A stretch of DNA of 64,000 nucleotides from a virus, in IMG/VR virus record IMGVR_UViG_3300036770_005052, positions 80,423 to 144,422 of that record; one strand, 5' to 3'. Under the pieces are notes generated by a model, which ran no database searches, was not told the origin of the DNA, and saw nothing but the letters and a program-made list of their open reading frames with translations. Of this stretch, positions 25,264-62,180 are shown in pieces. Made by a program: the position numbers and the translations under genes. Within the stretch, counting starts at the first letter, position 1. Each line of letters opens with the position of its first letter.

Positions 25264-25320
25264 GACACTTTAGAAACCGTCCACTACAACCCCGTCAAGG
25301 GGATTTTTTATTGCTATAAT
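25264..25320 (+). repeat. Palindrome-hairpin-(-10) intergenic element, copy 1
   Basis: GACACTT-TAGA-AACCGTCCAC...CCCC-GTCAA-GGGG...TGCTATAAT. Confidence 0.75.
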
Positions 25321-25343
25321 ATCAAGACAGTCAACCAAACATC

Positions 25344-26576
25344 ATGTTTCAACTTCGTCCCCACCAACAACGTGGTCTTGATGCCATGATCAAACATCTT
25401 AAAGGTCAATTGGTCATGCCCACGGGTTCTGGTAAGACTCCTACGATGATCTTTGATGCTAAAAATCAATTTGACAATCATTACGGAGAAACTCTGATCG
25501 TTGTAGTTGCTCCGCGTATTCTACTTTCTGAACAACTTTCTAGTGAGTTTCTTGAGTTTATCGATAATGCTTCCGTGATGCATGTTCACACTGGTGAAAC
25601 CCATCATTATAGTAGTACTAGTCCAAGTGCAATTCGTTCCTGGGTAGATAACACCAGGGGACATAAGATTATTTTTACAACTTATAATTCTCTTTGCCGT
25701 ATTCAAAAGGCAGACATTCATGTGAATACGATTTACTTTGATGAAGCACATAATAGTGTTAAGAAGTCATTCTTTGAGTCAACTGAATATTTTTCAGGGA
25801 ATGCAGATCGTTGTTATTTCTTCACTGCTACACCAAAACACAGTGCAACGATTTCTAAACCTGGAATGAATGATTCTAGGGTTTATGGGCAGGTGATCTG
25901 TAATGTTTCTGCACCAGAGTTGGTTGATGCTGGATTTATTCTTCCAGCTAAAGTTTCAGTTCAAAAAATTGATCTGGTGCGTGATAAAGATTATGGTGCT
26001 GAGCGTGACTGTATGACTCTTCTTGACACGATTATCAATGAAGATCATATGGATAAAGTTTTGGTTGCGGCGCCGAATACTAAGGTTTTGATGCGTATGC
26101 TTGCGGAAACTGAATTCATGACCGAAATTCAGTCTTATGGCTATGATGTGATGTGGATTACTGCAAAGTACGGTGCATTCATCAATAACAAAAAGGTTTC
26201 GCGTGAGGTATTCTTCGATACCTTGACTGCATGGGGTAAAGATTCTGATAAAAAATTCATAATTCTTCACTACAGCATTCTGTCAGAAGGGATCAACTGC
26301 CCTGGGTTGACATCCTGCATCATGATGCGTAATATGGATGTGATCCAGATGTGTCAGACCATTGGTAGAGTGATTCGCCTGCATCCAAACGATTCCAAGC
26401 GCATTCAAGCTGGAGAGATCGCCTCAGGGGATCTTCAGAGCTACTCCAAGGCATTTGGAATGATTCATGTACCAGTTTATGCTAATACTGGTATTGCCAC
26501 CGCTAAGCGCCTTCAGAGCGTCGTTGACACTGTTTTTACACAGGGTCAACCTGCAATTTCTACAATCAAACTCTAA
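25344..26576 (+). CDS. SF2 DEAH-box helicase (ResIII-like)
   Basis: Q motif LRPHQ, Walker A PTGSGKT, DEAH, TAT, LSEGIN, QTIGRVIR. Confidence 0.9.
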   Translation: MFQLRPHQQRGLDAMIKHLKGQLVMPTGSGKTPTMIFDAKNQFDNHYGETLIVVVAPRILLSEQLSSEFLEFIDNASVMHVHTGETHHYSSTSPSAIRSWVDNTRGHKIIFTTYNSLCRIQKADIHVNTIYFDEAHNSVKKSFFESTEYFSGNADRCYFFTATPKHSATISKPGMNDSRVYGQVICNVSAPELVDAGFILPAKVSVQKIDLVRDKDYGAERDCMTLLDTIINEDHMDKVLVAAPNTKVLMRMLAETEFMTEIQSYGYDVMWITAKYGAFINNKKVSREVFFDTLTAWGKDSDKKFIILHYSILSEGINCPGLTSCIMMRNMDVIQMCQTIGRVIRLHPNDSKRIQAGEIASGDLQSYSKAFGMIHVPVYANTGIATAKRLQSVVDTVFTQGQPAISTIKL

Positions 26577-26597
26577 TTTTTAACAGGAGATCTTATT

Positions 26598-26741
26598 ATG
26601 TTTTGTGAAGTTAAGCTTTACGTTGCTGGTAAAATTTTTTACGAAACTGTGATTGCTCGCGACTATGCGGAAGCCAGGCTTGTTGCAAAAACACGCAATC
26701 CAAATGCTACAATTATGGGTGTAACTGCTGTGGTTCGATGA
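26598..26741 (+). CDS. Small conserved cyanophage-type protein (not in ORF track)
   Basis: MFCEVKLYVAGKIFYETVIARDYAEARLVAKTRNPNATIMGVTAVVR; AGGAG RBS; ATGA overlap with the next ORF. Confidence 0.7.
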   Translation: MFCEVKLYVAGKIFYETVIARDYAEARLVAKTRNPNATIMGVTAVVR

Positions 26742-28240
26742 ACATTCAAAATGAAGGTATTTTAGATCCTGTTCCTGGTGAACCTAATGGGTTTGTCTCA
26801 AAAAATGGAGAATGGGCGGCAATTCCTTGGGGAAAGAAGTTCATTATTGTTTATAAGGGGCAACAAGTTCACACTGCAAAAAACTACAATTCTGCTAAAT
26901 CTTACATTCAAAAGTCCACAAAAGGTTCATCGGTTTCAACTTTGGATCAATTTTTGTCCGAGTAAATACACATAATGCTTTAATTCAATGACACCTTCCT
27001 ACTACTTTTGGTTTTTTGCCTTTGCTGTAATTGCTTACTTTATTGTGACCGATAATAGTGTTGCAATTGCAGTGAATCTTATTTCTAAATTAGTAGGAAT
27101 TTGGTTTGAAAAGAAAAAATGGTGGTTGCTTCACAATCCTCGTAATCCTGTGATAAAATATCTAATGTGGCGTCATGCTCTGAAACTTGCCAAAGAAATT
27201 GAAAAGGAATTTAAACAATGAAACCTAACTTTCGCAAAGTATTGGAGATGGCACTTGAAGAAGGTGTCCGTTATGGTTATTCTCGTGCTCATAAACACGT
27301 AGAAAATCCAACAGAAGGTGCTATTATTGATAATATTGTGGAGCAAGTTATGAATTCTTTGTATGAGTGGTTTGATTTTGAGGATAATAATGAACCTAAT
27401 TAATTTTAAACATCGTAAAACATTAATTAAATATAATCATCGTGAAGATTTTGGACACGATTGGTACGTTCAAATTTTAAATATCAAACGATGGAGTTTA
27501 CTCCAAGTATCTGTAAGTTGGAATGATTATCCATCTTGGCCTTATCTGCAGATCAAATCTGGAACTGGTGATGTTCTAGATTTTTTGTTCTGGGTTTATA
27601 AGTTTGGAATTGATGTGACTCTGATTGGTAGAACTTGGAGTTGGGACTATTTGGATGAAATAGATGAAGAAGGAGAAGATAATGAAGGAATTTCCCGATA
27701 AACTTAATTTGGATATAATGTGGACGGTGGCAACATCGTCCAGTATTGAAACTGGCACAAGACCCCAATACGGGTTTGCCAAACTGCTGTATGATTACCT
27801 CACAGACAACGATCCCTATGGACTCTGTAATGACTTTAAAAGAAAAGAAAGCACTCCTGAAGAAACTTGAAACTGCCTACAACACGTGTTTTGATTGTGG
27901 GAAGAAGTATGGAGTATATTCTGTAGGATGCTCCTCTGTTTATGAGTCAAAGTGTGGTGTGTGCGATGAAATCAAACCCATTACTGAAACTAGGGATTTT
28001 GCTTACTTTATTACTGGTATTCGCAAACTGAAACTTGAGATCCAAAATGAGAAAAGTAACCGTAAAACCGAAAAGCAAAAAGGCGAAGAACAGACTCTGC
28101 AATGTGATGGGTAATAATCCCATTTGCATTGTAGAGCAAGACAAAGGAGATGGTATGTTGTTTCTCGCATCAGAGAATCAAAAATACTTTTTCTGGGTAA
28201 ACATCAACGACTTTTGGGAATGTGATTGGGAGGTTATTTA

Positions 28241-28525
28241 ATGAGTTTTTCTAAAACTGTTTCTGTTTTTGCTGCTCTTGCAAGTATCTTTGCTGCTGGT
28301 GCTACTGGTTGGAAACTTGCAGATTCACAAAAAGAAGTTCCTTTGAGTCCATTAGACCAAAAGGTTATGGAGTTGGAAAAGAAACTTGACCAAGCACAAC
28401 AACCCCAAGTTGTTCCAGAACCTGTAATTCTTCCTACCCCCCAACCTCAACTGCCTCAAACATCTCAAACCCCTCCTCCTCAACTGCCTCCTCCTGCTCC
28501 TGCTCCAGAAAATGTCACTCCTTGA
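28241..28525 (+). CDS. Membrane-anchored Pro/Gln-rich protein
   Basis: N-terminal hydrophobic helix, short coiled coil, PQ/PP-rich tail; likely start is the ATG at 28241. Confidence 0.6.
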   Translation: MSFSKTVSVFAALASIFAAGATGWKLADSQKEVPLSPLDQKVMELEKKLDQAQQPQVVPEPVILPTPQPQLPQTSQTPPPQLPPPAPAPENVTP

Positions 28526-29128
28526 TACTCTCAATTACCTTATACAAGACCAAGAAGGAGACCTTCAATGTTATGAATGGGATATTAGGGAAGAACTCAA
28601 TCACGAAGTTAATGATGTTGATTGGTATACTGAACAATACGACCTCACAAAACAAAGAATAGAAGACCTCAAACAAATCAAAATCATTATTGAAAATCAA
28701 TGAAAACCTACAATCTCACCATCACTGAAAAGCAGGCACGAGCACTTGTAGATGCTACTGATTTGCTTCAAAGAGTTCAATTGGGTCAGTGGAGGGAAAT
28801 TCAAGATAATCTTCCTCTTCAAAAACCAATTGATTATACAGAATTTCACCAGGATATGAAAATTATTGGAGCAATTCTATCCAAACATATGATTGATGGT
28901 ATTGATGGTGGTGCTTCCTCACTTGGAGTAGGACATCAAGACCTTCCAGAAAGTAATGGTATTCTTTATGACCTTCATCGGGTCATTCGCAGGAAACTTT
29001 CTGTGGAACGAGCAGTAGAGCAGGGTATTATTGAGAATGAAAATGTTTCCAGAAATGAAATGCCTATCACAGTGGATTTTGATTTACCTATGAAGTGGGG
29101 AACCGAACCACTTGCTAAACTGGAAAGG

Positions 29129-29184
29129 GTCAGTTGAGAAACTGGCACAGGGTATCTCCACAGGTGCCCTTTTTGCCGTATAAT
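29129..29184 (+). repeat. Intergenic element copy 2
   Basis: GTCAGTT-GAGA-AACTGGCACA-GGGTATCT-CCAC-AGGTGCCC-TTTTTGCCG-TATAAT. Confidence 0.9.
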
Positions 29185-30062
29185 AATTTCAGTTCAAACA
29201 AACCAATGGACGACCAACACACTCTCAACGTGCAGATCGCTGACACGCTTGAGAAGATCCAACACATCAATCCTGTGTTGTATGGTTTCTGGTATAGTAA
29301 GTTGTATCCTCCTCATGGCGACACCAAACACTGGACTACTGAAACTCTTGTCCATTTAAACAATCTTTTAAAATGATTAGAGCAATCCTTAATCAAGTTC
29401 CAGTTAAATATGGATCTTATACTGCTGAAGGTAACAAGATCCGCCGAACATTCTCCAACGGTTTCAGTTACATCGTAGAAGAATGTAACTCACCAGAGGA
29501 AGCACAACGCATCGTCAGTGATCTCAACTATCTTACAAGCAAATGACTGAAACCAAAACCTATCCCTACCTCAAATACATTCCTCATTTTGTTGCAATTC
29601 GGTTGATTGTGCTTGGTCCCTTTGCGATTGCACAAGCAACGGCAGAGTTCATCTCCAACTCTCTGGATAAATTTACATACAAACTTGATAAACTTCTTCC
29701 ATCACCTTATATTGAAAAGCAAGTAGAATGGGATCAGTTGCCCAAACAAAATCAAGAAGCGATTGAGTATCTTGCAAAAAAGCGTGATACTACCAAAGAA
29801 CGAATTCTTATTCAAACTGTGAAACCATGACTAAACAACTACCACAAAAAACACACGCAGAGACACTAATTAAGGTCACAGAAGAATACACTCTACGACC
29901 CAAAACAGGTGATCGTGCTCGTGTATGTATTGCTACTCTTCAATATCTACTGGACAACTTTGCTTACAATGTTGAGTATGATGCTGATGGTTGGGGTGGT
30001 TCTGTTAAATGTGTAGAAACTGAAGACATTGAACATCTTATTTACCAACTGCAAAAACTGAA

Positions 30063-30239: not shown

Positions 30240-30511
30240 GCGGCGGACACTTCAACGATTGCGGATACGAATACTATAATGTCTCACAGTTTGCTGATGA
30301 ACTTGAAGCAGAAGTTCGTAACAACTTTGAGAAGGATGAGTATGGTTATGCCTATGAGTATCCCCCAGAAGTTTGTGAGTATCTTTTAGAACAGGTGCCC
30401 AAAATGCGTAAGATGGCAGAGATTATGAGGGCGGTGGATTACTTATACAGCGGCGACCACGGTAGCGATAGTTTTATGGAAAGGGTGAAAGAAGTAGAAG
30501 AGAAATATAAG

Positions 30512-30567
30512 GACACTTGAAGAACTGGCACAGGGCATCTCCACAGGTGCCCTTTTTGCCTTATAAT
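30512..30567 (+). repeat. Intergenic element copy 3
   Basis: GACACTT-GAAG-AACTGGCACA-GGGCATCT-CCAC-AGGTGCCC-TTTTTG..TATAAT. Confidence 0.9.
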
Positions 30568-30589
30568 ACTCTTATAAGCAATCAAACCG

Positions 30590-30856
30590 ATGGACTACGA
30601 AACTGAAATCATAGATGGACGCAAAGCAGTTGTCCGTCATTTCTTCAAATCACACGAAATTCAAGTTGGTTCTCGTTGGGCACGGGCAGATGGTTCTAAA
30701 GGTTTTGTGACCGTTGAAGGTCTCAATTCTTATGGGAGCACAGACCCTTGGTATGAAGTAGTTTATTCTTGGGAAGAAAATGGTGTGAAGAAAATCTGGC
30801 AAAAAGAAACTTTTGCCTTTCAATGTCGTTATTGTTTGATTATTGAGGACACTTGA
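30590..30856 (+). CDS. Hypothetical protein, single-gene cassette between element copies 3 and 4
   Basis: 88 aa; its stop codon (EDT*) lies within element copy 4. Confidence 0.75.
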   Translation: MDYETEIIDGRKAVVRHFFKSHEIQVGSRWARADGSKGFVTVEGLNSYGSTDPWYEVVYSWEENGVKKIWQKETFAFQCRYCLIIEDT

Positions 30857-30903
30857 AGAACTGGCACAGGGCATCTCCACAGGTGCTCTTTTTGGTTTAT
30901 AAT
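30848..30903 (+). repeat. Intergenic element copy 4
   Basis: 40 nt identical to copy 3 (30847-30886 = 30511-30550). Confidence 0.9.
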
Positions 30904-31098
30904 ACTCTCATACACACAGACACCTGATGACTTTTCTATCTGGACTTGAAACTTACTTTCTGTTTTTTATTGGAGTTTATGCGGTAAATCAGGTTTGGAA
31001 TTTCTTTACAAAAGAACGAACCCAAATTCAAATCTTCACCGAAGCACTTCTTTGGGCAGGAGTTTGGATTGTTTTTGATAAAATCGTTGGTATTTGAA

Positions 31099-31278: not shown

Positions 31279-33173
31279 CTAACGAAGAACTCCCAGTATC
31301 AAACGAATTCATCACATTTGTGAGAATTCGACTTGACCACGAACAAAAACAACAATTCCGTCGTTATCTAAATCTCCATTATCTTGGTGATGTGAATTGT
31401 AATGAGTATGATGAGAATATGAAAATTGTTCCCAAATACCCAGAGAAAGAAACACAAGAGTTCAAAGATGCTATGTGGAGAGCAGATATGTCAGTAGATT
31501 ATCAAGTCAAAGTAGTTTATGATGTAAATGGTCAATGTAAATTGGAGTTGCTATGATTGACCTCAAAAGATATAAAATCACTATTACTGTCACCACAAGA
31601 GATAGTGCTTTTGATACAAAAATTGGAGACCCTATTTGGCATCTCCTTGATATTGAAAATGGAGAACGACTTGATAGTGTTTCTTTACCTGTTGAATTAC
31701 CTTTGATTAATTATGAATAAACTCTTTCAATACGATAAAAAAGTTTGGGAAAATGATGAAACTGACCGCACTTGGCAGTTCGGTGTCATCAACAATCGTT
31801 CATTACTTTGGGTGAATTATGAAAATCCCAGTAGTTTAGTTCATAGTAATGGTGGATTTCACATCATGCTCTCATTTCTTACTTCTTCTTCTCTTTTTGG
31901 AGTAGATTTTCAAGTTGGTAAGATTGGTTTGAGTTTTAACTTTTTCACAGAATACTTTGATGGGTGGGATGACTAATGTTTAACTTCAAAGAGGACTGGG
32001 AAGAACCAACTCGTAAGGCAATTCAAAAAATGCTGACTTATAAGGGATACATTCCATCCAAAGACCTCAACGAGTATCAGTATCAAACCTATCTTCAAGT
32101 AGCATCACCATACGAACTTGAAAAGGACATTATCACCGAAAAAACGATGCTTAAAGTAAATGATGAAGAATTATGATTAAAATCTATTGTGTGGTTGATA
32201 ATGTTGATTTGGGTTATCACGTTCTGTGTGCTTCCACTTCCAAGGATAAAGCACAAGTAGCATTAGATATAAAGATTAAACAAAAATATGATTATGCTAT
32301 TAAACAACAAGTGCTTCGTGGATTTGATTACGAGAAAGCAAAAGAAAAAGTAGATGAATGCTTCTGGACTCCTTATGAAATTATTGAGATTGAGGTGGAA
32401 GAATGAATAAGGACGCATACTACGACTGGATTGATGAAAACGACACATATCCAGAACATTCTCATAAGTGGATAGTGGGACTTTATAACAAATATGAAGG
32501 TGTAGAGGGACTTCATAGATACTTTGGAGTTTTTGAAACCAAAGAAGAAGCAAAAGTATTCGCAGCAGATTATAAAGACAAATATACAAAACCAGGATTT
32601 ATTTCAAGTATAAGAGTGTTCCCTTTGTGTGAGGTATTATGACCAACCCTGATTACCGAATTGAAGAATGCTTTGATTTTGATTGTATGACTACTTACTA
32701 TGTTATTCAAAGATATAATGTTGTTCAAGCAGAGTATGTTCTTCACTCAACAAAAAGATTTGGACAACTTATGCAAGCAAAAGAGGCAATTAGGATGTTA
32801 AGGAGATACAAAGAACCAATTTATCATTATATGGAGTGAGAAATGACAAAACTCTACAATCGTCCTATGAATTTCTTTGAGAAACTTTCTGCTGGGTATT
32901 ATTGGTTTGGTGAATGTTGGAGTGAGTGGTGCTATACTATGAGAAGTGAAGACGGAGAGTTCTTTAACTATCTTCAAAGTGATTATGTCCGTTATGAACA
33001 GGATATGTATTATGACTGATTGGTTGTCTGGTTTTAGAGAAGAAATCAAACAAATTAGAGAAGACAACAAACAAATTAGAAAGGAAGTTGAAAGATTGCG
33101 AAAAGAAAATGAAGCACTTCGTTCCATTACTCCTAAAAAATTATTAGAGATTGTGGAAAAATCTGTAAAGGAG

Positions 33174-33229
33174 GACACTTTCTAAACTGGCACAAGACCT
33201 CACCACAGACCCTGTGGATGCCCTATAAT
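33174..33229 (+). repeat. Intergenic element copy 5
   Basis: GACACTT-TCTA-AACTGGCACA...CCACAG-ACC-CTGTGG..TATAAT-ACTCTCATACACAAAGGAAC. Confidence 0.9.
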
Positions 33230-33536
33230 ACTCTCATACACAAAGGAACTCCAAATGCTTGATGCTTTTACTGATTATCCTATTCCATCTTATGGTGATG
33301 TTGCGGGAGAAAAAGCACCTATTCGTAGAGCAAAAATCTTGACCTACGATAGAAATAAGTATTGTGATGTGCTTGTCTATCAAGTAGATAAAGATGGAGA
33401 TTTGAGAGGAACTGTTGTTAATTTTAAGCAGTTTTATCTTTATAAAAATGAAGCACGACTTGATGATGGCATTCCATTCACTGATGAAGAACTGAAAACT
33501 CTTCCTTGGACTAAAATAAGTTCTCCTCATTCCATT

Positions 33537-33566
33537 TGATATAATGACCTCATACACAAAGGACTG
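33537..33566 (+). promoter_or_regulatory. Truncated element (extended -10 + leader only)
   Basis: TGATATAAT-GACCTCATACACAAAGGACTG-ATG; the TGA is the upstream stop. Confidence 0.7.
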
Positions 33567-35805: not shown

Positions 35806-35977
35806 TTGAAATGAGAATTGTAGAACACGAACTGGGAATGAAACCAGATATTCAGTATCGTTTTGTGCTTTCTACTGCTGATGCTTCTGTTCCTTTTATG
35901 AATACATCTATGAACTTGATTATGCAAAATAGTTTTGTTTGGAGTGAATGGAAAACTGCCGAATGGGTAAAAGCAGA

Positions 35978-36033
35978 GACACTTGAAGAACTGGCACAGT
36001 AGGCATCCAGAGTGGTCTGTGATGCCTTATAAT
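35978..36033 (+). repeat. Intergenic element copy 6
   Basis: GACACTT-GAAG-AACTGGCACA-GT-AGGCATC...GATGCCT-TATAAT. Confidence 0.9.
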
Positions 36034-37439
36034 AATAGGACAAACAAAGGAACTCCAATGATTACTGATGAACAAATCCTTAAAATTGCCCGAGAACATC
36101 TTTATATTCTTACTTCTGTGAATGAATGGTGTGGTGAGGAGGGAGACCTCTTAAACTTTGCCCGAGCAATCTACGAAATCGGTAATGACAATGGTTGGCA
36201 AAGTCGTGAAGAAGCAGAATACTTCAACTCATCTTATCCAACTGGACTTGTAGGAGACCCACAATGAAACTTGTAGCAATTTTTCATCATCACTCTAACA
36301 ATCTTCCTATTGTGATGGAAGTATCTTCAACTGAAAAGTTTCGGGATTGTTGTGACACACTTCCAACTGACTGGGCACACCTGATGAATAAGGAAACTGG
36401 AGAAATTACATACACTTATAGAAACAACACTCGTACTGTTTCTCAACCAACTTTTACAATCTCACAAGAACAATCTATCAACCGAGTAGAACGATGATTA
36501 CTGACGAACAAATCCTCAAGCTTGCTAAAACCTGTGGATTTGATGATTTCTCACCCGAAGATAGAGTGTGTTGGGAATGTTGGGAAGAACAACTGATTGA
36601 GTTTGCCCAACAAATTCGTAAAGAAACAATCAACGAAATTCTTTCTGCCCTCAAAAATGTTCCTAATCCAGAAGCAAACCGAACAGCAATCAATCGTATT
36701 GAAATGGAGTTAAATTGATGATTGAAGTAAAGAAATCTTATGTTTTGGAATTGACTGAAACACAGGCAAGGGAACTCTACAAACTTCTACTATCCGCAAA
36801 ACATACTGAACACATAACTCACGATAATGAACTGGTGCTTGTCTATCACGAACTCAAAAAACTCTTTGATACGGGGATACGATGAATAAGTATCGTATCA
36901 AAAAAGAAACTTATGGTGATACTACAAGGTATTATCCACAAGAGAAATTTTTGTGGTGGTGGTATAATGTCTTTGCTTTTGATGTTTATTTTGATGGTGG
37001 ATATGATACTCTGGAAAAAGCACAGAAAAACTTGTGTATCTACTGTAGGGGAACTATGGTAGAATATATTAACTTTAACCCTAATGAGGATTGTAAATGA
37101 CTGCTGATTACAAACAACTTGCTCAAGAACTTTACAGGGTACTCAACAGATTTAGATGTTGGTCCCCAGAAATAGATGATGTTATCTCAAAATACGAATA
37201 CGCAACAACCAGAGGAACTGGACGAACCACTGCTCTCTATATGAAAGCAATCACAGAAGCACTTGAAAATCCTGGTAAGAGTGTGGAGTTTATTGACCAT
37301 TATCCTCATACTTTTCTTAGTGCTAAAAGTCACGGAAGCAATCTGGCAAATATTATTATTAAACTGGGATATGATATTGCGGTTACTGTTCCTTCTGGAG
37401 ATGGAAGAGTGTTTCTTTACAATAAGTTTGGACAATAAG

Positions 37440-37496
37440 GACACTTACTAAATTGGCACAAGGGCACTTGAAATCAGGTGCCTTTTGTCGCATAAT
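37440..37496 (+). repeat. Intergenic element copy 7 (TTGAAA-loop subtype)
   Basis: GACACTT-ACTA-AATTGGCACA-AGGGCAC-TTGAAATCAG-GTGCCTTTT..CATAAT. Confidence 0.9.
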
Positions 37497-37519
37497 ACTT
37501 CTATACACACAGAAGACTG

Positions 37520-37813
37520 ATGACTGCTGAACGCATTACAATCAAAGAAAGCAAAGATTTTTGTTACTATGGTGAGTTTTATGGTTCAATAGACAAAATC
37601 ATTTCCACACTCCAAAGGTGCAAAGAACAGGGTTGGGAAGGTATTGATTATGATTATGATTATGGGAATGGAGGAAAAGACTACTATGTCTACAAAACCC
37701 GACTTGAAAATGATGAAGAGTATGAAAAGAGAGTGAAACAAGAAGAGCAACAAAAAGAAAATCGTCGTAAACAATATGAACAACTCAAAAAGGAGTTTGG
37801 TAAGGACACTTGA
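37520..37813 (+). CDS. Hypothetical protein, single-gene cassette between copies 7 and 8
   Basis: 97 aa; ends KDT* inside copy 8. Confidence 0.75.
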   Translation: MTAERITIKESKDFCYYGEFYGSIDKIISTLQRCKEQGWEGIDYDYDYGNGGKDYYVYKTRLENDEEYEKRVKQEEQQKENRRKQYEQLKKEFGKDT

Positions 37814-37861
37814 AGAACCGTCACAAGGGCACTTGAAATCAGGTGCCTTTTGTTGTATAAT
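37805..37861 (+). repeat. Intergenic element copy 8 (TTGAAA-loop subtype)
   Basis: GACACTT-GAAG-AACCGTCACA; TTGAAA (37833-38), 17 nt, TATAAT (37856-61). Confidence 0.9.
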
Positions 37862-40800
37862 GACTTCATACGCACAGAAACCTAATGAAAGTATTTTCTT
37901 TATACTACAACGATGAGTTCGTAGCATCTTTTCCCACAAAAGAAAGTGCTATTTTCTATGGTAAGCAATTCTATGAGGATGGATGGTCTTGTAATATTGT
38001 AGAAGAGTATTTGAGTAAATCTCCACTACTTTATAGCACTCCTTATACTCCTCTCACAAATCCAAATCCTATTCCTTATACAATTCCTCCTATAGTTTCA
38101 AAACCACCTGCGAAGTATCCTGACACTTATCCTCATATCTATTGTGATGGAACCAAATGAAATGTAAATACTGGGATTGTGGGTTCTGTTATGCACCAGT
38201 AGATGTAGAAACCAACGCAACTCAAGGTGGATGTTTTGAACCAGAATATTGCCCTTATAAGAAATCACAAATGACTAATCAACAACTCCCTGATATTATT
38301 GAAATCGGTGGTGTAAAATACCAACGAGTAGAAGAACCAAAACCACAGACACTCTTTGAGATTATCCGTGAGTGGTGTGATGATGATAATCAACCAACTT
38401 GCGAAGAACTTGTGAGTAGGATTGAGACGGGATGGTTGCCTAATGAAGGTTGCCACGAACTAAACAGTAATGATTATTGTGAGGGTTGGAATGATTGCAT
38501 AGAACATCTAAAAGAGAACCTCAAATGACTGAAATACCAGAACCAAAAAAGTGGAGTGAGACTTACGATAAAGAACTCACACTTGAAGAACTATTTCAAC
38601 TGATTGGTGATGTTGAGTGGAACTTAAAGGATTATATTTGGGAACTTAAACAAGAAGTTGAAGAACTAAAAAAATTAGCACACTTTCACGACGATATGTA
38701 TACTGAAAAAGGTGAATTGATTAGAAAATGACTGACGAACAAGGAAACTTGGAATGGGAAGAACTACGACTTCAAATAGAACAAAAAGCAAAAGAAATTG
38801 GAGACATTGTGAACATTCTTGAACGAAGGAGACAAAAACTTAAAGAAATCAACGACACAAACAAAGCAGTAGAGAACAAACGGAAAGAAAATCTTATTAG
38901 TGACCTACAATCCAAAAACTGGTATGTGAATATGAGGGAATTTATGTATCCAAAGGTGGAAGTGGTTGATGATGAAATTGTTACGATTAATGGTGTAAAG
39001 TATCAACGAGTAGAAGAACCAAAACCACAGACACTTTTTCAGCATTTGAATTCTTTTGGTATTGTTGGTGCTGAAGGCATCTGTAATATTGTAAGAGGTT
39101 GGTTGATTGACAACACAGTAATTGAAACTGAAGATGCTGAAAAGGTTACATTTACTATTCATAAAGAACAATTACAAACACCAAAATGACTAACTTACTC
39201 AAATACATCAAATCTCTAAAAACAATTTATGTTCCTTCACTTTGGTTTGGTGTTCTGTTAGTTGCTTTGTTATTTCCACAGTATGTTTTGTGGTTTATGT
39301 TTGGAACTGCTTGGGGAGTTTCGTGGATGTTTGCTTACAATTGGTTTCACGACAAATGATTGACTACACCACAATAGAACTGGAACTTATCTTTGAGGAA
39401 GTCGCAAAACTTCCAAAAACCACAGACACTTCCTATGTGGTTCCAGATGTGTTAGAATTGGTGAGACAACGGATTTTTGATTATGAACTTCAATGATTTG
39501 CCCAATAATTCTTGGGAAAAAGTAATGGTTCATCTTGTGGAACATATTGGTGGGGATGGTGGGTCTCTTGTAAAATGGAGTGGAGAAATCCCAGACCCAG
39601 TAGAAACAGCAACTGCAATTTTGGGAATGGTTCAATATTATGACCCAGATTATCGGGACTTACCAGAAGGTGCTCTTGCTAAAGGTTTTAGAGCATTTTA
39701 TAGATTGGGAGAATATGAAGAATGACTTACGAAGATTTTTTGAATATTCCAGGTGGTGTTCTCAAAGATTTGCAAACTATTCTTATCTTGAAAGACAAGT
39801 ATCATATGGATATTACCACTGAAGAAAGAAAAATCTGCGAACATATAAACAGGTTTGCTGACGAACGAAGAAAATCTGCCGAACTCTGGAAACAAAAAGA
39901 ACAACTTGAAAACCTTTTTAGAAAATGAAATCCTTCAACATCAACTATACCGTCAAAGTAAAACTCACAAAGTTCGGTAAAGAACTTCATAAGAAACTCT
40001 GGGAAGATTTTTGGAACTCTCACGGTAAATTGGATAAGTTTCCTTATACTCCACCAAAGGAAGATGAAAATGGATACTGTGAGTTTGTAATGTGGGACTT
40101 GATGAATAAGTTTGGTTCTTATTGTGTATTGGGATGCGAACAACCTTTTGATACTATTATTCTGATTGATGAGGAGTATTTGAAAGATGATTGAGTTTCT
40201 TATGATTGTTATGCTTGTTTATATGGGAGGTTCTATGTTTTTGGGACTACTTGAATACCTTATGGATAGAAAGAAATGACTGAACCAAAAATAAAGAATA
40301 TTCTTATACCCTACAAAAATAAAACGGTTTATGCTCCTTGTATTAAAACAGAATATGGTTGGTGTATTAATATGACTGATGAGGTTATGAAAATTTTGGA
40401 AACAAATGAAATAAGAATTGACGGTGTTATTACTGTGGAGGATTTGAGAGATGACTAAACTTGAACTTATTCAAAGATTACAGAACTCCCCTTTTACTAG
40501 ATGGTGGTGGAAAATGTGGATACATAACACAACCAGAAGAATTATAATGGTTCCTTTCTATAAAAATCCAGGAAAACAATATGAACTTTGTAAATTTAGA
40601 GAATAATGACTGAAAAAAAGATTGTACATTTTGGGAAAGAATACATAATTCCACAAAATGTTATTGATGATTTGATGAAGTATCACGGTCTTGATGCCGT
40701 AGAAGCAGTGGAACAAATAGTAGAATTGAATGATGAGGTAAAAAATGACTGACAGATTAAATCACAAACTTGATGTAAGTAAAATTCAAACTCTTGAAGA

Positions 40801-42131
40801 TGTGCGAAATGTTTTTGAGTGTATGAACTTGGTTGCTAATTCGAGTGAAACTAACGAACAGTATGAACTTCTCAAAGAGTATTTTACTATTCCTTATGTT
40901 CCAGAACCTTTGAAGTTTGATAAGGCAGATTTTGACTATCAAAATTATATTGAGGATTATAAATGACTGAAAAAATAGGATACAAACTCAATCCAAAGAA
41001 ACTCAAAAAAGCACCTCAATACATTACTCCTTATTTGTTTCTTGGTGCTTTTTATTACACCGAAGATTATGAGTATTTTGATGTAATCAAACCTTATCTT
41101 GATATTCCAGAACCACCCAAGTCATTAGAAGAAATCTCACAAGAATGTGAAGAGAAGTTTGATAAACATATTGAGAGTATCAAGCATAAGTTTGCTGAAC
41201 TCAAATGTCATCAAGAGTATCTGTACAATCAAAAGTTCAATAGGATTATTGAGAACTTTGAATACGCTAAGGAACACGGACAATTCCCAGTCAGATTTAC
41301 AGTAGGTAATTTAGATTGTTCTAACCTTATTGCGAATAATACTGTATCTTGGAGCACAGAGTTTAGAATTGGTACAGATGAAGTAGGATACTGGGACATC
41401 AAACCAAACATCAAAGTGTATCTGAAAAAGAAACCAAACCGTATTGTGAGATACTTTACCAAACTGCTTCTTGATTTTACTTGGAAAGACAAATGAAACT
41501 AACTGCTGCTGATATGATGGTGATTGTGGATACTCTCAATCATAGTTTGCGAATTGGAAATTATGGTGGAGGATTTACTACAGAAACCCGAGAACAAACT
41601 ATGAATGCTGTGATTGATATTATGGCAAATATGGGTGCAGAAGTTGTCTGTGGTGATGTAGAACCTATTGTAGTGAGTGGAGATGTTGAAGAATGACTAA
41701 TCCTCTTATAGACAAATATAATGAAATCTACGGAAAGAAAGAGATTAAAAGTCCAATAACTTTATCAGACCCAAATATTTCACTTACAACAATACCATCA
41801 GTAGCAACATCAACCACAGGTATTACAAAGGCATCAAATTTTCTAACTCACGATATTCACGATACGGAGAAAACTTTTCTACAAGTCGCAGATAAAATCA
41901 AACAAGGAAAAGCAAAGGTAGGAAGTGTGAGTATAGAACACGATGTTATGCTTATGGGTGGAACAAAAGTATTTTTTGAGGTTTATGTTAACAATTGAAG
42001 AACTCCAAAAATACTTGGATGATAATAAAATCACCCTTGAAGAGTATATGAGAGCAAATATGATTACTGATGAAGACAGGAAATATTTTGATAAGATATG
42101 GATGGATGCGATTTATAAGAACTTGGGTGAG

Positions 42132-42187
42132 GACACTTTCTAAACTGGCACAGGGGATGCTCTGGGTGCCTCTGTGGGTGGTATGAT
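42132..42187 (+). repeat. Intergenic element copy 9
   Basis: GACACTT-TCTA-AACTGGCACA...TGG-TATGAT-ACTCTCATACACACAAAGGAC. Confidence 0.85.
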
Positions 42188-42396
42188 ACTCTCATACACA
42201 CAAAGGACTGATGACTTCAAAAACCATATCAATTGGTGATTGGAAAATTAAAACTTTGACTGAAACAGAAGTCAAAGATATTATTGCTATGCTTCGTCAG
42301 GCACAACAAGACAATCTTGATGATGAGCATTCTTATGAGTACTTCAAAAAATTAGCATCAAAAATTCACCGAATGGGACTTGCTTTTCAATCTCTT

Positions 42397-42426
42397 TGAT
42401 ATAATACTCTCATAAGAAACAAACCG
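42397..42426 (+). promoter_or_regulatory. Truncated element (extended -10 + leader only)
   Basis: TGATATAAT-ACTCTCATAAGAAACAAACCG-ATG; the TGA is the upstream stop. Confidence 0.7.
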
Positions 42427-42980: not shown

Positions 42981-43036
42981 GACACTTGAAGAACTGGCAC
43001 AGGGGGTCTCCACAAGACCCCTTTTTGCCTTATAAT
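42981..43036 (+). repeat. Intergenic element copy 10
   Basis: GACACTT-GAAG-AACTGGCACA-GGGGGTCT-CCACA-AGACCCC-TTTTTG..TATAAT. Confidence 0.9.
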
Positions 43037-47570: not shown

Positions 47571-47617
47571 AACTGACTAAAAGGGCACTTGAAATCAGGT
47601 GACTTTTGCTGTATAAT
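47571..47617 (+). repeat. Intergenic element copy 12 (left arm degenerate)
   Basis: AACTGACTAA-AAGGGCAC-TTGAAA-TCAGGTGAC..; TTGAAA, 17 nt, TATAAT. Confidence 0.75.
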
Positions 47618-48799
47618 GACTTCATAGACAAAAACTCAAATGACTTTTAACACCGATATTCAAAAAACTGAAAAAGAAATTGCCGTCTTACAAAAAAAAC
47701 TTGAACTCCTCAAAGAGATTGAGACACATAAATCTCAACCAAGAATGGAGTTTGGATGTGGTGGTAAATTTGAGATTGTTTCTTATAATTCTGTGGATTA
47801 TTGTCGTTATGAATGGAACGATGGAAGTCATAAATGGTATAAAAGAAAGTATGCTGATGAGGGTGTGTTGATGATTGCTATTACTGATGGTGAAACTCAT
47901 CGTCTGCTTGAAGGTGTGTGGTTTAATGATGTGAAGAAAGGAAAGTATGATGAATCATATTGTCCTGATGAACCAGAACATTATGATGAAGTAGAGTGGG
48001 ATGAGAAAGATAATCCTGCTTCATACATTACCGATGAGGTTGTGAATAGGTTGGTAAAAAAATACGAAGCACAAAAACTTTTTAATAGATTGGTAGATGA
48101 ACTTGGTTATGATTTTGATGCTTGTAATGATGTTGTAGATTTGGTAGAAGATTGGTTGCCGAAAGAACAATCAGCAGAAGGAAGTCAGAATGTAAATACT
48201 GAATTGCTTGTAGATGGATTTAATGATTGTTTGCGTAAAATCAAGGAAATGTTGCGATGAGATACAATCCAGCAGATTGGAATACATATACTCAAAAACA
48301 AAGAAAAGAGTGGCATTACAAACCATATGAAGAACAAAGAGAGATTATAAATCAATCATATCTCTCTTTGATTGCTGATGAGAATGGAAATCTGGATGCT
48401 TTGAAAATACTTGAAGTTATTATGGATTTACAAGACCGAGTAGAAGACCTTGAAACAGAATGTGTGAGGAAGGAGTACTTCCAATGACTGAAGACATTCA
48501 ACAACCCAATGGAGACTTTCTAAAGAATTATCCAGATGTAACTCGTGTTGAAGTCATTACTGGTGAAGGAAGAGAGTTTGTTCGGTATGAATGCTCTAAT
48601 GTTCAGGTAAGTCTTCAGGACGACGGACAAACACTTAAAGTATTTCTTTTTACGACTTATGACTGAAGAATACGGGCATCTTCCTGATGCTTTCTTTCTT
48701 TCTGAAAAGGAGATTGAAGACTTGCGAAATGCTAAAAAAGAATTAACGACTTATGGTAGAGAGAAACTGAAAGAACTTCTTGAGAAGCAGAAGAAAGAG

Positions 48800-48856
48800 A
48801 ACACCTGAACAACTGGCACACGGGCACTTGAAAACGGGTGCCCTTTGCTGTATAAT
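48800..48856 (+). repeat. Intergenic element copy 13
   Basis: AACACCT-GAAC-AACTGGCACA-CGGGCAC-TTGAAAACGG-GTGCCC-TTTG..TATAAT. Confidence 0.85.
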
Positions 48857-49724
48857 ATGAGAAATCAAAGGAACTCTTATGGACTGCGAACCTTATCCTG
48901 ATGAAATGTTTGACGAGGCAGAACGTCGTGAGGCAGCAAACAGAGAACTTGCAAAAGAAGAATGGGAACGCAAAGAACGTAGTGATACTGTCCTGCGACG
49001 ATATAATGCTTTTTATAATGATGAAGTTTCTGGACTTCCTCACGGCACACCTGTAACAATGGAGCAACTTCAAGCAATCACACTGGATTGTGCTGTTGAT
49101 GCTCTTATGTGCGAAAACCTAAATGTGGAGTATAATGTGATTGCGATTGATGACATCAAGGATTTAATTGCCCGATTGTATCAACAAGGTAATGAGTATC
49201 TTGAAAGAGTTAGAAAACTTAAAGGAGAGGAATGACTGAACTTACACAAGAACAACGACAAACAATTGAAGACGCACTTAATTCACTTCCAGAAGTAGTA
49301 AAAAAAGGAATGTTTTCTACTATGGAAGGTATTGAAGAACAACTTGCTCGTGGAGATAAGATTATCTTTTATATGAGACCACACGAAGTTCCTGGTGGTT
49401 TTTATATTGATAAAATGAAGGTTGGGGAAGATGACTGATAAACCATTTTATCGGTTCTTTGCAATTGATTATTGTGCAACTGGTGAAGGTCGCTCTATTT
49501 GGTTAATGATCTGTCGTTATGACTTTGATGGAGAAAGAGATTATGAGTATGAAAGATTTGCAAACTTTGTTAATTATGATTATTATCTACGCGGATTTGA
49601 TGAATTTACAGAGCGAGAGTTTCTGGATAAGTATACGCGATTTATTCCTCACCTGATTGCCAATATGCTTCGGGATAGAACTATTGGCACTTGGCAAACT
49701 CATTTCCATTTTAATCTTAGTTAA

Positions 49725-49780
49725 TACACTTACCAAACTGGCACAGGAGTGCTCCACAGACCCACAAAATACCCTATAAT
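49725..49780 (+). repeat. Intergenic element copy 14
   Basis: TACACTT-ACCA-AACTGGCACA...CTCCACA...TATAAT; hairpin decayed. Confidence 0.8.
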
Positions 49781-51131
49781 ACACCCATAAACACCCAATT
49801 ACAATGACTCACAACTTCTACAACAACATTATTGGAACTGATATTCTACATAGTATCACTGATGTTTATGAACTTTGTGATGAAGTGGAACGAATGACTT
49901 ATCGTGTAGAACTCCAAGCAGATAATGGTGGAGTTTATATTAAATCGGGTGAAAAGGGACACGAAGAAGGTTCTAAAAACATCACCGAAGATATGTCTAT
50001 TGGGAACAAACAACTTGCGATTGTTGTTGCAAAAAGGATTCTTGAACTTTACGGAGAACTAAAATGAAAATTCAATTCAAAGCTCATCAAACAACTGACC
50101 GAGAAGTAGAAATCACTCAAAAAGAACTCTTTCAAATCTTTGAGATGATGCGGGAACAGTTTGAGAATCACATTACCTATGCAAGATTCAATCATTCCTA
50201 TCCAGATCGTCTTGAGAAAACCATTGTAGATTTTTGCAATTCTCATTCAGTTGATGTAGAATACGACAAAGATCGTGTTGCGTTTTTTAGTGCAATTCTA
50301 GACAACCTCAAGAATCCTTATCAATGAACACAAGAGCACAAACAATCTGGAACGCATTTTGTGGAGAACTAATTGTAGAACCCACAGATGATATGAGAGA
50401 AGCACTTGCGACTGCTGTTCGTAAGATTGTGAATGAGTTTCAATACTATCACTTTGGTAATGGTGAGGATATGGTAGTTGATGCTAGAATGCTTTATGAA
50501 CTTGCTGACGAACTTGAAAAATGAACGATGAAAAGAACCCTGATGAGATTGTCGTCAGGGACATTGATATGATACACTTTGAGATGATGGATGATGGGTT
50601 CCTCTGGTGTGGAATCTATCATAAGAATGGTCAAGTGGATCATTTCAACATCACCGCAAAGAAAAACAAACTCTCTACACTCTGGATGCCTAATTGTGGA
50701 TAAAAAAGAACTTTTTGAGATCGTAACCAAAATTATTGCATCTCCTCATACTGCCATCACAGAGCACGACAAACGCCGTGCTATTCAGGTATTTCTGGCA
50801 TTTGATGACTATCTGATTGATGTTGATGTTGCCGCAGGACGATGTGATGTTGGTGATGAGTATGACTTTTGTTCTTATGCTTCTGAACAACTTGACATCT
50901 TGGAGGGTAAAAAATGACACATGATGAATACTGGGGTATGAGTAAGTGGGAATGGTTCCGTGAGGGATTTTTCCATATTAGGTATATCCTAGATTGTTAT
51001 GAGACCGTTGAGCACTTTCCTGATGACTTTTGGGAGGCACTCTCTTGGGGTTGGTGTTGTGAATACATTTATCCTTATGATGATCCATATAATCCTTATC
51101 TTTCACCTGAACGCAAGTTGAGGTTGGGAAG

Positions 51132-57859: not shown

Positions 57860-57914
57860 ACCGGCATGGGTCATAATTCCCATGGTCTAAATTCTAAACA
57901 TTTCTAAGATAAAA

Positions 57915-58679: not shown

Positions 58680-58680
58680 G

Positions 58681-59622
58681 ATGATGAAGACTCTAGATTT
58701 ATTTGCCGGAATTGGTGGAATTCGCCTTGGATTTGAAAATGCTGGATTTAAAACAGTTTTTTCAAATGATTTTGAACCACTTTGCAAAACAACTTTCGAT
58801 TTAAATTTCGGAGAGCCACATCTTCATGTTGAAGATATTCGACAAATACCTCCTAGCAGTCTTCCAAACTTTAACATTCTTTTAGGTGGATTTCCTTGCC
58901 AGGCATTTTCAATAGCTGGATATCGACAGGGATTTGCAGACGAAAAGGATAGAGGTAATCTGTTCTTTTCAATAGCAAATATCTTACAAGAAAAAAATCC
59001 AGATGCATTTTTGCTTGAAAATGTAAAAAATTTAAAAGGACATGATAATGGAAATACTTTTAAAGTGATTCAAGATACATTATCATCTTTGGGGTATTGT
59101 GTAAATTTTAAAGTTATGAATACCATGGAATATGGTAATATTCCTCAAAATCGCGAAAGAATTTACATTGTCGGATTCAAAGATAGAGAGCATCATTGCA
59201 ATTTTAAATTTCCAGATCCGATTGATTTAACTGTGAAGGTTACAGATCTTCTTGATCAAAATATACCATCAAAGTATTACTATAATGGTAAACCTCTTTA
59301 TGATCGAATTAAAGATGATGTAATCGATCAAACAAAAGTATATCAATGGCGTAGGCAATATGTGAGAGAAAATAAAAAAGATGTTTGCCCTACTCTTACT
59401 GCCAATATGGGTACTGGTGGTCATAACGTTCCAATTATTAAGGATTCCAATGGTATTCGTAAATTGACTCCAAGAGAATGTTTAAGACTTCAAGGATTTC
59501 CAGATTCTTATATTCTTCCTGATATTTCTGATGCTACCCTGTACAAGCAAGTTGGAAATTCTGTGAGTGTACCTGTGATTCAAGCTATTGCAACACAAAT
59601 TTCCAAGGCAATGTGCCAATGA
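58681..59622 (+). CDS. C5 cytosine DNA methyltransferase (M.Bsp6I-like)
   Basis: Motifs DLFAGIGG, GGFPCQ, ENVKNL, QNRERI, LTPREC, YKQVGNSV; TRD 'YQWRRQYVRENK..CPTLTANMGTGGHNVP'. Confidence 0.95.
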   Translation: MMKTLDLFAGIGGIRLGFENAGFKTVFSNDFEPLCKTTFDLNFGEPHLHVEDIRQIPPSSLPNFNILLGGFPCQAFSIAGYRQGFADEKDRGNLFFSIANILQEKNPDAFLLENVKNLKGHDNGNTFKVIQDTLSSLGYCVNFKVMNTMEYGNIPQNRERIYIVGFKDREHHCNFKFPDPIDLTVKVTDLLDQNIPSKYYYNGKPLYDRIKDDVIDQTKVYQWRRQYVRENKKDVCPTLTANMGTGGHNVPIIKDSNGIRKLTPRECLRLQGFPDSYILPDISDATLYKQVGNSVSVPVIQAIATQISKAMCQ

Positions 59623-59671
59623 AAAAACTGTCACATTAGAGATTTTGTCTGACCTTGGTTGACCTTATAAT
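59615..59671 (+). repeat. Intergenic element copy 15
   Basis: (ATGT)GCCAATG-AAAA-AACTGTCACAT...TATAAT at the same spacing as other copies; contains the MTase stop. Confidence 0.75.
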
Positions 59672-60152
59672 ATGGATGTACACAATCAATCAGTTAATGA
59701 CTACCACCTTCGCTGATTACGCCGCCACTGCAGAGGCACGAAAGAACATCGCAGAGGCAGTTCTGGGGCATACCTATGCCCTCTGTGAGGCACTGCGCCA
59801 GAACTACATTGATTACAGCATCAAGTCTCATCAACATGCCATTAAGAATAATGGTATCGTCGATGAGAGTTATGTTCCTTATCATCAGGAACAGATTGAG
59901 AAACTCAAGCAAGGTATTTGTGATTATGAGTTCTATCCTGAAACAGGACGGAAGTATCACAAAATCATTATGAATGCGAATGGTTCTCGCTCTGTTCATG
60001 CTTTTGTGGATCGTAAGACTGGTGAAGTTTACAAATCTGCTTCTTGGAAAGCACCTGCCAAGGGTGTTCGCTATGATCTTCGTCTGATTAAAGATCGTGA
60101 ATGGTTGCTTGAGAATGCTGACTGGTCGGGTGGTTACTTGTACGCAAAATGA
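59655..60152 (+). CDS. Conserved phage hypothetical protein
   Basis: 'GRKYHKII...SVHAFVD.KTGEVYK.ASWKAPAK.VRY'; the true start is probably the ATG at 59697, downstream of element 15. Confidence 0.7.
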   Translation: MVDLIIWMYTINQLMTTTFADYAATAEARKNIAEAVLGHTYALCEALRQNYIDYSIKSHQHAIKNNGIVDESYVPYHQEQIEKLKQGICDYEFYPETGRKYHKIIMNANGSRSVHAFVDRKTGEVYKSASWKAPAKGVRYDLRLIKDREWLLENADWSGGYLYAK

Positions 60153-60766: not shown

Positions 60767-61012
60767 CCACAAAATTCATCACATTAAACAAACTTACACA
60801 AATTCAAAATGAATGACAAAGACATCAAACAATTTATTACTGCGTTCAAAGATTTTATGAAACATGCACAATCTCAAGAATTTAATATGAATTCTAAAAA
60901 AGAATATGATCGGTATCAAGAAGAAAGTAAAATGATGATTGAAAGTGAAATTGAAAAAAAAGCTGCCGAAATGGAAGTAACCGTCGATTATTATATTGCA
61001 GAATTTATGTAA

Positions 61013-61041
61013 TTGACAAATTTAAAATAGTCACCTAAAAT
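61013..61041 (+). promoter_or_regulatory. Sigma70-type promoter
   Basis: TTGACA (61013-18), 17 nt, TAAAAT (61036-41). Confidence 0.65.
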
Positions 61042-61300
61042 TATTGAGCAATTTAACAAAAGAAATGAAGTATCTTTACATCGTTGACTACTGGATTCCA
61101 TTTCCTTCTTCGGAATATGGTGGGGTAGTTGATGTTATAGCAGAGTCTGATCAAGAGTGTTTTGATTTATTGAAAGATTGGAGAGATGAATATAACTCCA
61201 ATTATGATAATTTGATCATGCAAAAAATTAAAACAGCTATCAAACTTAAATTGGATACATATAATGAAGAACCATCAAGGATTGCATCCGCTTTTACGAC

Positions 61301-61600
61301 ATGACTGAAGAGCAAAACGTAAATGATTCTGAATCTACAGTAGTTGTAGATCTAGAGGTAGAAATTGAAAGAATAGAAGAAAATCATCAAAAAAATATTG
61401 ATACTCTTTTGAACAGTTACGAAAAAACATTTCGGGATCAAGAACAAAAAATATTAGATTTGTATGAAGAAATAGAAAAAGTAAAAGAGTCCTGTGCAAA
61501 TAAAAATAACGAAAGAATTGATTTACTTTTAAATGAAAATTCGAAGTTAAATGAGGAGTTAACAAAATTCAAACAATTGTATGGGGAACTCCCTGCATGA
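61301..61600 (+). CDS. Coiled-coil hypothetical protein
   Basis: E/K-rich heptad pattern. Confidence 0.55.
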   Translation: MTEEQNVNDSESTVVVDLEVEIERIEENHQKNIDTLLNSYEKTFRDQEQKILDLYEEIEKVKESCANKNNERIDLLLNENSKLNEELTKFKQLYGELPA

Positions 61601-62125
61601 GTAAGGATTCTTTTTATGAAGGATTGGAAGTAAAATATAAAGGATTTATTGGACACATCAAATTTATTTGTGATGAGTATTTGACAATGTGCATACACAC
61701 AAATTCAGATCCATTAAAAGATGTTTGTGTTTTAATTTTTAATGAACAATTAAAGGACATTGAACTTATGACGGGAAATAGAATGAATGAAAAATAAAAA
61801 TGTATGGAGATGGTGGGCAAAAGCGTTAGGAGAGAAAGCATCTAAGTGTGATCGTGAGTCTGATACAATTGCGATTATTAGGTCTTTTATTTTTGCAACC
61901 TATTTGATTACAAATGCCTTTATTGTTGCTGGTGTAATCAGGCACTGGAATGATAAACAATCAATTGAAATTTACATTGAAAATCCTTATGAAGTACCAA
62001 GTAATCTACAACAAAAACAAGAAGAAAAAGATCTCCAAACAAATCGCAACTTTTTATAAAATTGAAGATGCTTGCATGTGGGAAAAGCATGTTAAAGATC
62101 AAGGATGCTTTGATGTTGAGGTTGT

Positions 62126-62180
62126 GCCAGTTTTTTAACTGTCACACCATCTCCCACTCCTGGACAAAATCTTGTAGACT
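62126..62180 (+). repeat. Intergenic element copy 16 (most symmetric palindrome)
   Basis: (TGT)GCCAGTT-TTTT-AACTGTCACA...TAGACT. Confidence 0.75.

Follow-up and report, generated by a model that had tools for sequence, protein, structure and literature searches.

Repeated units of a symmetric site, a hairpin and a -10 box before small early-type genes of a T4-like cyanophage: putative terminator/early-promoter junctions

The sequence analysed here (the window) is a stretch of 64,000 nucleotides (nt), positions 80,423 to 144,422 of the IMG/VR virus record IMGVR_UViG_3300036770_005052, and represents the final 64 kb of a 144-kb contig whose completeness is estimated at 62%. This window contains a family of repeated units, each composed of a 24-bp two-fold symmetric site (hereafter the dyad), a hairpin, a -10 box and a short leader, of which about 17 copies are located before small early-type genes. 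The first 25 kb are occupied by large open reading frames (ORFs) of structural type, and beyond 25 kb there are about 134 genes on the + strand with a mean length of ~290 bp. Among 123 small ORFs, nine Pfam families were recognised, including CP12, cupin and several DUFs. The gene psbA is present on the contig, and a megablast of the window gave patchy matches (82%) with the 'ORFanage' of S-PM2 and with the freshwater phage S-SRM01. The phage is a T4-like cyanomyovirus, a relative of S-PM2 and S-SRM01, and the window covers its region of small, early-type genes.

The repeat family is real and well defined. The pattern GACACTT-N4-AACTGGCACA, searched with at most 3 mismatches, had 15 matches in the window, compared with 0.16 +/- 0.44 in 100 dinucleotide shuffles used as control (maximum of 2 in a shuffle). 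An nhmmer profile trained on 12 copies and run over the entire 144-kb contig recovered 12 strong full copies (E-values from 1e-14 to 4e-26), all on the + strand between window positions 29126 and 49817, that is within a 21-kb stretch where genes average ~290 bp. Weaker or partial matches were obtained at 47581, 27748, 25262 and 59623. Two copies are reduced to the palindrome, one at window position 62123 (+) and one elsewhere on the contig, at its position 6761 (-), and two others (33539 and 42400) consist of the -10 box and leader only.

The dyad extends over 24 bp (10-N4-10) with the ideal sequence TGTGCCAGTT-N4-AACTGGCACA, and its half-site G(A/C)CA(C/G)TT is flanked by GTG. The -10 hexamer, almost always TATAAT, begins 29-30 nt beyond the end of the dyad (position 51-52) and ends 55-58 nt from the start of the left arm. 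The ATG is found 77-81 nt from the same point and 21-25 nt past the -10 box. Besides the dyad, the conserved parts are a short TGCC immediately 5' of the -10 box and a ACTCTCATA-type leader. The upstream genes have their stop codons in or at the left arm and display the tails KDT*, EDT*, NDT*, RDT* or EDTF* (the asterisk is the stop); in the window and the IMG/VR copies together, the stop falls at -3 to +11 of the dyad start for 57 of 84 long upstream ORFs. These tails are common to many proteins because the left arm, when coding, reads (E/K/N)-D-T-stop.

A set of 212 dyads, collected with a degenerate pattern and a correctly placed -10 box, was used to examine co-variation between the arms. 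At the two variable positions, just 23% and 12% of the copies are symmetric. The GACAC-type and GCCAG-type half-sites can each be found in the left or in the right arm, and the right arm is nearly invariant in sequence. Since its arms do not co-vary, the dyad is to be seen as a predicted protein site and not as a hairpin. Relative to a predicted start 7 nt past the -10 box, it spans about -66 to -43 with its centre near -54.

The spacer between the dyad and the -10 box was folded sequence by sequence for 128 copies from the window and its relatives, and compared with shuffles. The mean minimum free energy (MFE) is -11.7 kcal/mol and the median z is -2.5. The centre of the hairpin is located 31.7 +/- 2.2 nt from the dyad start, over the -35 slot. 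Because the register of the stem shifts by a few nucleotides from copy to copy, column-wise covariation is modest, and a single consensus hairpin for covariation counting was dropped for the same reason. Within the hairpin loop, 17 nt 5' of the -10 box, is a hexamer; five copies of the window have CTCCAC there and four have TTGAAA. Over the 128 copies, this slot shows a mean of 2.0 matches out of 6 to TTGACA; 44% of the copies reach 4/6 matches to a -35 box at a spacing of 16-18 nt, and the -10 box is TATAAT in 87 of 128. The best terminator-like matches of the 39-kb region are situated inside elements. A terminator-like stem followed by a T-run is present in about half of the copies, at 29129, 30512, 30848, 37440, 37805, 42981 and 48800 and, in a weaker form, at 25264 and 47571; the combination of a GC-rich stem and a T-run is missing at 33174, 35978, 42132, 43998 and 49725.

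An earlier reading of this DNA, made without database searches (the sequence-only reading), had described this element family, and the 15 pattern matches against 0.16 expected and the 12 strong profile copies bear it out. Its list of copies holds for most sites; three of them (47571, 59615 and 62126) are partial, where it had so labelled only the first, and it had overlooked one copy (27739) and the two minimal ones. Its near-fixed spacing of the -10 box stands with a measured range slightly wider than the 55-57 nt it gave, and its conserved leader, put at ~22-26 nt, measures 21-25 nt. The inverted repeat is indeed a symmetric site, with a full extent longer than the consensus it had proposed. 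Two further observations are confirmed: the upstream stops inside the palindrome with shared tails (57 of 84 long ORFs), and hairpins that vary in sequence while pairing is kept, the conservation being one of structure (median z of -2.5).

The exact dyad was detected in at least 120 contigs of IMG/VR. A -10-like hexamer is present at an offset of 49-52 in 128 of the 154 unique exact-dyad copies (TATAAT in 87 cases), against 12.8% at random positions. In complete genomes of cultured cyanophages, the degenerate dyad is more frequent than a control pattern, with 18 versus 7 matches in Syn9, 25 versus 7 in S-CRM01 and 22 versus 8 in S-PM2. The degenerate form was needed, as AACTGGCACA alone used as probe in Syn9 retrieved mostly Thr-Gly-Thr coding repeats of structural genes. 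Between 43 and 49 kb in Syn9, the layout of dyad and -10 box is located 5' of the small genes gp55, gp63, gp68 and gp75. One S-CRM01 copy lies 5' of RNaseH and its hairpin was annotated by the depositors as a Rho-independent terminator. In S-PM2 (AJ630128), about ten dyads are distributed from 2188 to 23198, in the first 24 kb, and those at 8576, 9856 and 11350 are within the 'ORFanage'. One early promoter and two stem-loops were described in this 'ORFanage' (Puxty et al. 2015), and the stem-loop at 11369-11391 comes directly after the dyad at 11350. A region reported as poor in promoter-early stem-loops (PeSLs) thus holds about ten dyads in its first 24 kb. The promoter-terminator layout is not new, as it already exists in the cultured phages Syn9, S-CRM01 and S-PM2.

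The unit is probably a compact junction of the PeSL type between a terminator and an early promoter, used by the host RNA polymerase without a -35 box and dependent on a protein bound at about -54. Each unit would join two early transcription units and would be read by the polymerase of the host. The upstream gene ends inside the left arm of the dyad; the hairpin would end or stabilise the upstream transcript, and transcription would begin again about 7 nt past the -10 box, where a dimeric protein on the dyad, centred near -54, would activate the promoter in a class-I-like manner. Because the -35 slot falls within the loop of the hairpin and mostly departs from the consensus, the promoter is expected to depend on this dyad-bound dimeric protein; because the genes are of early type, the protein would most likely be a host protein or one brought in with the virion. 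As a by-product, the repetition of a unit of ~90 bp would also allow ordinary homologous recombination, in the way described for PeSLs. The terminator, operator, promoter and leader that the sequence-only reading had attributed to the unit fit this anatomy, given the terminator matches and the fixed TATAAT; the recombinase site that it had added does not. As for the dimeric dyad-binding protein that it had postulated, a symmetric protein site with arms that do not co-vary is found, with a centre at about -54 in place of -53, and no protein was recognised for it in the window.

Several points count against this interpretation. The promoter and terminator activities of the units are deduced from the sequence only. 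A site centred at -54 is off the helical face of the classic CRP class-I sites. A run of at least four T is present in just 35 of 97 well-folded spacers (~36%), so that termination may fail at many hairpins. Beyond the window, a dyad is found 1 nt from a consensus TTGACA-N17-(-10) promoter at each of the contig positions 4867 and 14089; these two dyads are 5-6 bp nearer to the -10 box and form a second geometry class, and therefore the geometry is not universal. No dyad-binding protein was identified. The 123 small ORFs of the window contain no recognised helix-turn-helix or other DNA-binding family, and a weak PrlF/AbrB-like match (E-value 6e-4) is the lone hint of DNA binding among them. In 2016 Doron and colleagues reportedly described a novel element that controls the early genes of Syn9 and P-TIM40 and is conserved across T4-like cyanophages. 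Given the Syn9 layout, the element of the window is likely the same.

The coordinates of the copies in the window are given in Table 1.

Table 1. Copies of the element in the window (window coordinates; tail, C-terminal residues of the upstream ORF with the stop as an asterisk; E, nhmmer E-value of the copy where listed).
Position	Strand	Copy	Characteristics	Tail or neighbouring gene	E
25261..25343	+	degenerate	right arm AACCGTCCAC; hairpin, T-run, TATAAT	5' of SF2 helicase gene 25344-26576	0.022
27736..27817	+	full	dyad TCGTCCAGTATTGAAACTGGCACA; TATGAT at standard distance		4.7e-6
29126..29205	+	full	terminator-like hairpin and T5; MFE -18.3, z -5.2	VS*	
30509..30589	+	full	terminator-like hairpin; initial 40 nt identical to those of the 30848 copy	KDT*	
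30845..30926	+	full	terminator-like hairpin	EDT*	
33171..33254	+	full	hairpin without T-run	EDTF*	
33539..33566	+	minimal	TATAAT and leader only	right after upstream TGA	
35975..36057	+	full	hairpin without T-run	RDT*	
37437..37519	+	full	TTGAAA in hairpin loop, 17 nt from CATAAT; T-run		
37802..37884	+	full	loop TTGAAA 17 nt from TATAAT; top terminator-like match of the region		
42129..42210	+	full	TATGAT	EDTF*	
42400..42426	+	minimal	TATAAT and leader	3' of gene 42211-42399	
42978..43061	+	full	terminator-like hairpin and T5	NDT*	
43995..44076	+	full	hairpin without T-run	upstream stop codon finishes just 5' of dyad	
47571..47639	+	partial	left arm missing; TTGAAA-loop hairpin, TATAAT and leader intact		1.4e-6
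48797..48878	+	full	terminator-like hairpin, loop TTGAAA	ENT*	
49722..49803	+	full	weak hairpin		
59612..59696	+		dyad TGTGCCAATGAAAAAACTGTCACA; TATAAT at standard distance; no hairpin	5' of DUF7717 gene	0.039
62123..62217	+		near-perfect dyad TGTGCCAGTTTTTTAACTGTCACA; weak -10 only (TAGACT)	dyad kept at the same place in the related locus L062	

The orthologues of the helicase gene in three related loci (L040, L096 and L127) have a perfect dyad at the position that matches the degenerate 25261 copy. The dyad at 59612 comes after two genes located at 58110-59622, where a Bsp6I-like restriction endonuclease gene (PF09504, E-value 1.5e-16) is immediately 5' of a C-5 cytosine DNA methyltransferase gene (PF00145, E-value 1e-88). 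Together, the two genes resemble a complete, cyanophage-borne restriction-modification pair of type II. At 57777-57860 the window also contains a PeSL-like junction devoid of dyad, with a strong hairpin (CCCCTCC...GGAGGGG) followed by TTGACA-N17-TATAAT. A search of the window and of the dyad array loci described below against Rfam gave no matches.

The dyad could also be the operator of a phage-made repressor that shuts the early genes later, in front of a promoter that needs no activator, which we consider rather unlikely. Many cyanobacterial promoters are active with a -10 box only, without a -35 box. Both copies with a consensus -35 box retain the dyad, and on a freshwater fragment unrelated to the contig more than 30 dyads are arranged in arrays of 57-58 bp, with an operator-like look. 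However, the site covers -66 to -43, outside the core promoter, which is a poor place for simple occlusion; the PrlF/AbrB-like match is all that the 123 small ORFs offer in the way of a recognised DNA-binding family; and the dyad also occurs in phages whose protein sets show no detectable overlap.

The arrays were found on freshwater phage fragments that share no detectable proteins with the contig: L419 (IMGVR_UViG_3300008113_001711, 1-10000), and also L060 and L113. Two of the array fragments contain 34 and 24 forward-strand matches to AACTGGCACA (at most 1 mismatch) in about 10 kb. Many of their dyads are in tandem units of 57-58 bp with TTGACA 7 nt past each dyad, and the only proteins recognised on the array-bearing contigs are RNR beta-like and Rho_N-like. 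Such arrays may serve as multiple promoters or as decoys for the factor that binds the dyad. As the dyad is common to phages without detectable shared proteins, a factor that is encoded by the host, or widely shared, is favoured.

Within the activator interpretation, a tentative possibility is that the dyad represents the landing site of one regulator of the host cyanobacterium, for which a PlmA-type GntR protein is a reasonable guess; the early genes would then be switched on according to the nitrogen and light state of the host, and the arrays would be multi-promoters or decoys. The regulators of Prochlorococcus are very few (PMC6778093), which leaves PlmA as a reasonable candidate by elimination. 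In marine picocyanobacteria, the PlmA-type GntR regulator PMM1637 has its site, CGRE1, in the yfr2 promoters (Lambrecht 2018, PMC6191309), and this regulator is found in all cyanobacteria and only there (PMC6191309). CGRE1 is a palindrome of 21-22 bp, with GTTG...CAAC as outer part and GTG(N)CAC as centre, that starts at -55 to -57 (PMC6191309). Both CGRE1 and the phage dyad are palindromes located 5' of a promoter and contain GTG/CAC and GTT/AAC words. Compared with the text of that paper, the phage dyad nests these words oppositely, with GTG outside and GTT...AAC inside. The centre of CGRE1 is at about -46, whereas the phage dyad, relative to its predicted start site, begins at about -66 and has its centre at about -54, ~9 bp further upstream. 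An identity of sequence and geometry between the phage dyad and CGRE1 is thus not confirmed.

The searches for host sites of the dyad and for CGRE1-like sites were negative. The perfect 22-bp dyad gave 15 matches in 185,579 prokaryote genomes, none of them cyanobacterial and in a number close to chance, an uninformative result as perfect dyads are rare even in phages. The Rfam family Cyano-1 (yfr2) is absent from the contig. Guessed CGRE1 forms in viral contigs were at random level or absent, and a scan of metagenomes with the CGRE1 skeleton returned unrelated palindromes only. As a separate observation, the metagenome contigs L200, L202, L220, L258, L264, L268 and L290 carry a perfect 21-bp palindrome, GTTGCATGTG(T/A)CACATGCAAC, amid several GTTGCAT-type repeats, which resembles a cluster of iterons or operators from some replicon.

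A signal acting at the RNA level, in which dyad and hairpin would direct processing or stability at the 3' end of the upstream messenger RNA, is improbable. Dyad and hairpin are located at the end of the upstream transcript and the folding of the hairpins is under selection, as this model would have it. However, the arms of the dyad show no co-variation and usually pair poorly, what is conserved is sequence (with the nearly invariant right arm), and the distance of the dyad is fixed relative to the downstream -10 box and not to the upstream stop codon.

The sequence-only reading had further proposed that the units form a portable gene-cassette system with synteny breakpoints at the palindrome. 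A dedicated, integron-like system of site-specific recombination is very improbable. Against 90 related loci, synteny is lost almost everywhere: 95% of the comparisons at element junctions and 88% of those at other gene junctions show a break, a difference that is not significant (Mann-Whitney p = 0.09), and special breakpoints at the elements are not supported. Tyrosine and serine recombinases (PF00589, PF00239) were not found in the contig, which is 62% complete, nor in the complete genomes of Syn9, S-CRM01 and S-PM2, and this search, negative in the contig and in three dyad-enriched genomes, leaves the proposed recombinase site without its enzyme. Some arrangements do have the appearance of cassettes. 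A gene of 88 amino acids (aa) is bracketed by identical 40-nt repeats at 30511 and 30847, the same unit of element and gene occupies other contexts in L049 and L009, and unrelated gene pairs share hairpin versions: in 61 of 81 pairs of near-identical hairpin spacers, neither the upstream nor the downstream gene is shared. The gene 30590-30856, however, is between two elements in the window and in L049 and has none on either side in L066.

The limits of the rearrangements also speak against a dedicated system. A 1.2-kb insertion (about 30240-31275), which includes two elements and three genes, is bordered by the paralogues 30063-30239 and 31099-31278. These paralogues are 58 and 59 aa long with 82% nucleotide identity, and the relative L030 has one copy and lacks the segment, as expected for an insertion or deletion through homologous recombination between paralogous gene copies. 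In the homologous region of S-PM2, the sole experimentally documented deletion, S-PM2d, has the coordinates 5,799-15,339 (PMC4503421); its ends are away from elements, with no dyad and at most 9 nt of shared sequence nearby. One other indel does end within the units. The gene 42211-42399 is situated between a full element and a second copy of the -10 box and leader; in L025, the full element is joined straight to the gene located 3' of the 42400 copy, and the indel ends in the duplicated -10/leader block. The recombination of units fits ordinary homologous recombination within the dyad and the -10/leader blocks, as proposed for PeSLs (PMC2839356, PMC4122927), and it is this part of the cassette idea that survives. 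Shuffling is rampant, yet it is not concentrated at the elements and does not need them, which tempers the cassette idea for 'ORFanage' regions.

Finally, a selfish miniature mobile element without regulatory role, of the MITE (miniature inverted-repeat transposable element) or REP (repetitive extragenic palindrome) type, would account for the many dispersed and sometimes near-identical copies, but it is hardly credible for copies that are all co-directional with the genes and placed exactly between stop and start codons, that have a TATAAT at fixed distance and no terminal inverted repeats or target duplications, and whose orthologous positions are conserved across distant cyanophages.

The terminator/early-promoter junction, which remains the preferred interpretation, bears on early transcription in T4-like cyanophages, which runs without Alt, Mod, MotA and AsiA. 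The window would provide an unusually clean and numerous set of promoters, with a rigid geometry, a half-site in two variants and a terminator within the -35 slot, and such a set eases the design of pull-down, electrophoretic mobility shift and reporter experiments.

The closest known systems are compared as follows. The analogy with PeSLs, already drawn by the sequence-only reading, is apt. PeSLs are known from the T4-like myoviruses phi1/RB49, PST/T4 and nt-1/KVP40 (Arbiol 2010, PMC2839356; Comeau 2014, PMC4122927). Like the units described here, they are composites of a stem-loop, a host-type early promoter, a leader and a start codon, repeated between the small ORFs of a hyperplastic region in copies that are similar enough for recombination, and some indels end within the units. 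They differ in that the PeSL stem-loop is upstream of the -35 box, whereas the cyanophage stem-loop occupies the -35 slot and most cyanophage copies have no recognisable -35 box. The upstream region of PeSLs is AT-rich, in place of the 24-bp GC-containing dyad, and only in the cyanophage unit does the dyad incorporate the stop codon of the upstream gene. An enrichment of synteny breaks is not demonstrated for the cyanophage units (95% versus 88%, p = 0.09). The element that Doron and colleagues reportedly described is alike in being abundant, conserved and located 5' of small genes of the early region, and Syn9 itself shows the layout; in the lake-type lineage of the window, the spacer contains in addition a terminator-like hairpin and the leader is very uniform. 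With the T4 middle promoters, the units have in common that an activator site, putative in the cyanophage, stands in for the -35 box at a constant spacing from a good -10 box. Cyanomyoviruses have no alt, modA, modB, motA and asiA (PMC2984593), and the T4 promoters differ in having a single asymmetric MotA box at -30 and in needing MotA and AsiA, where the units described here have a two-fold symmetric site at -54.

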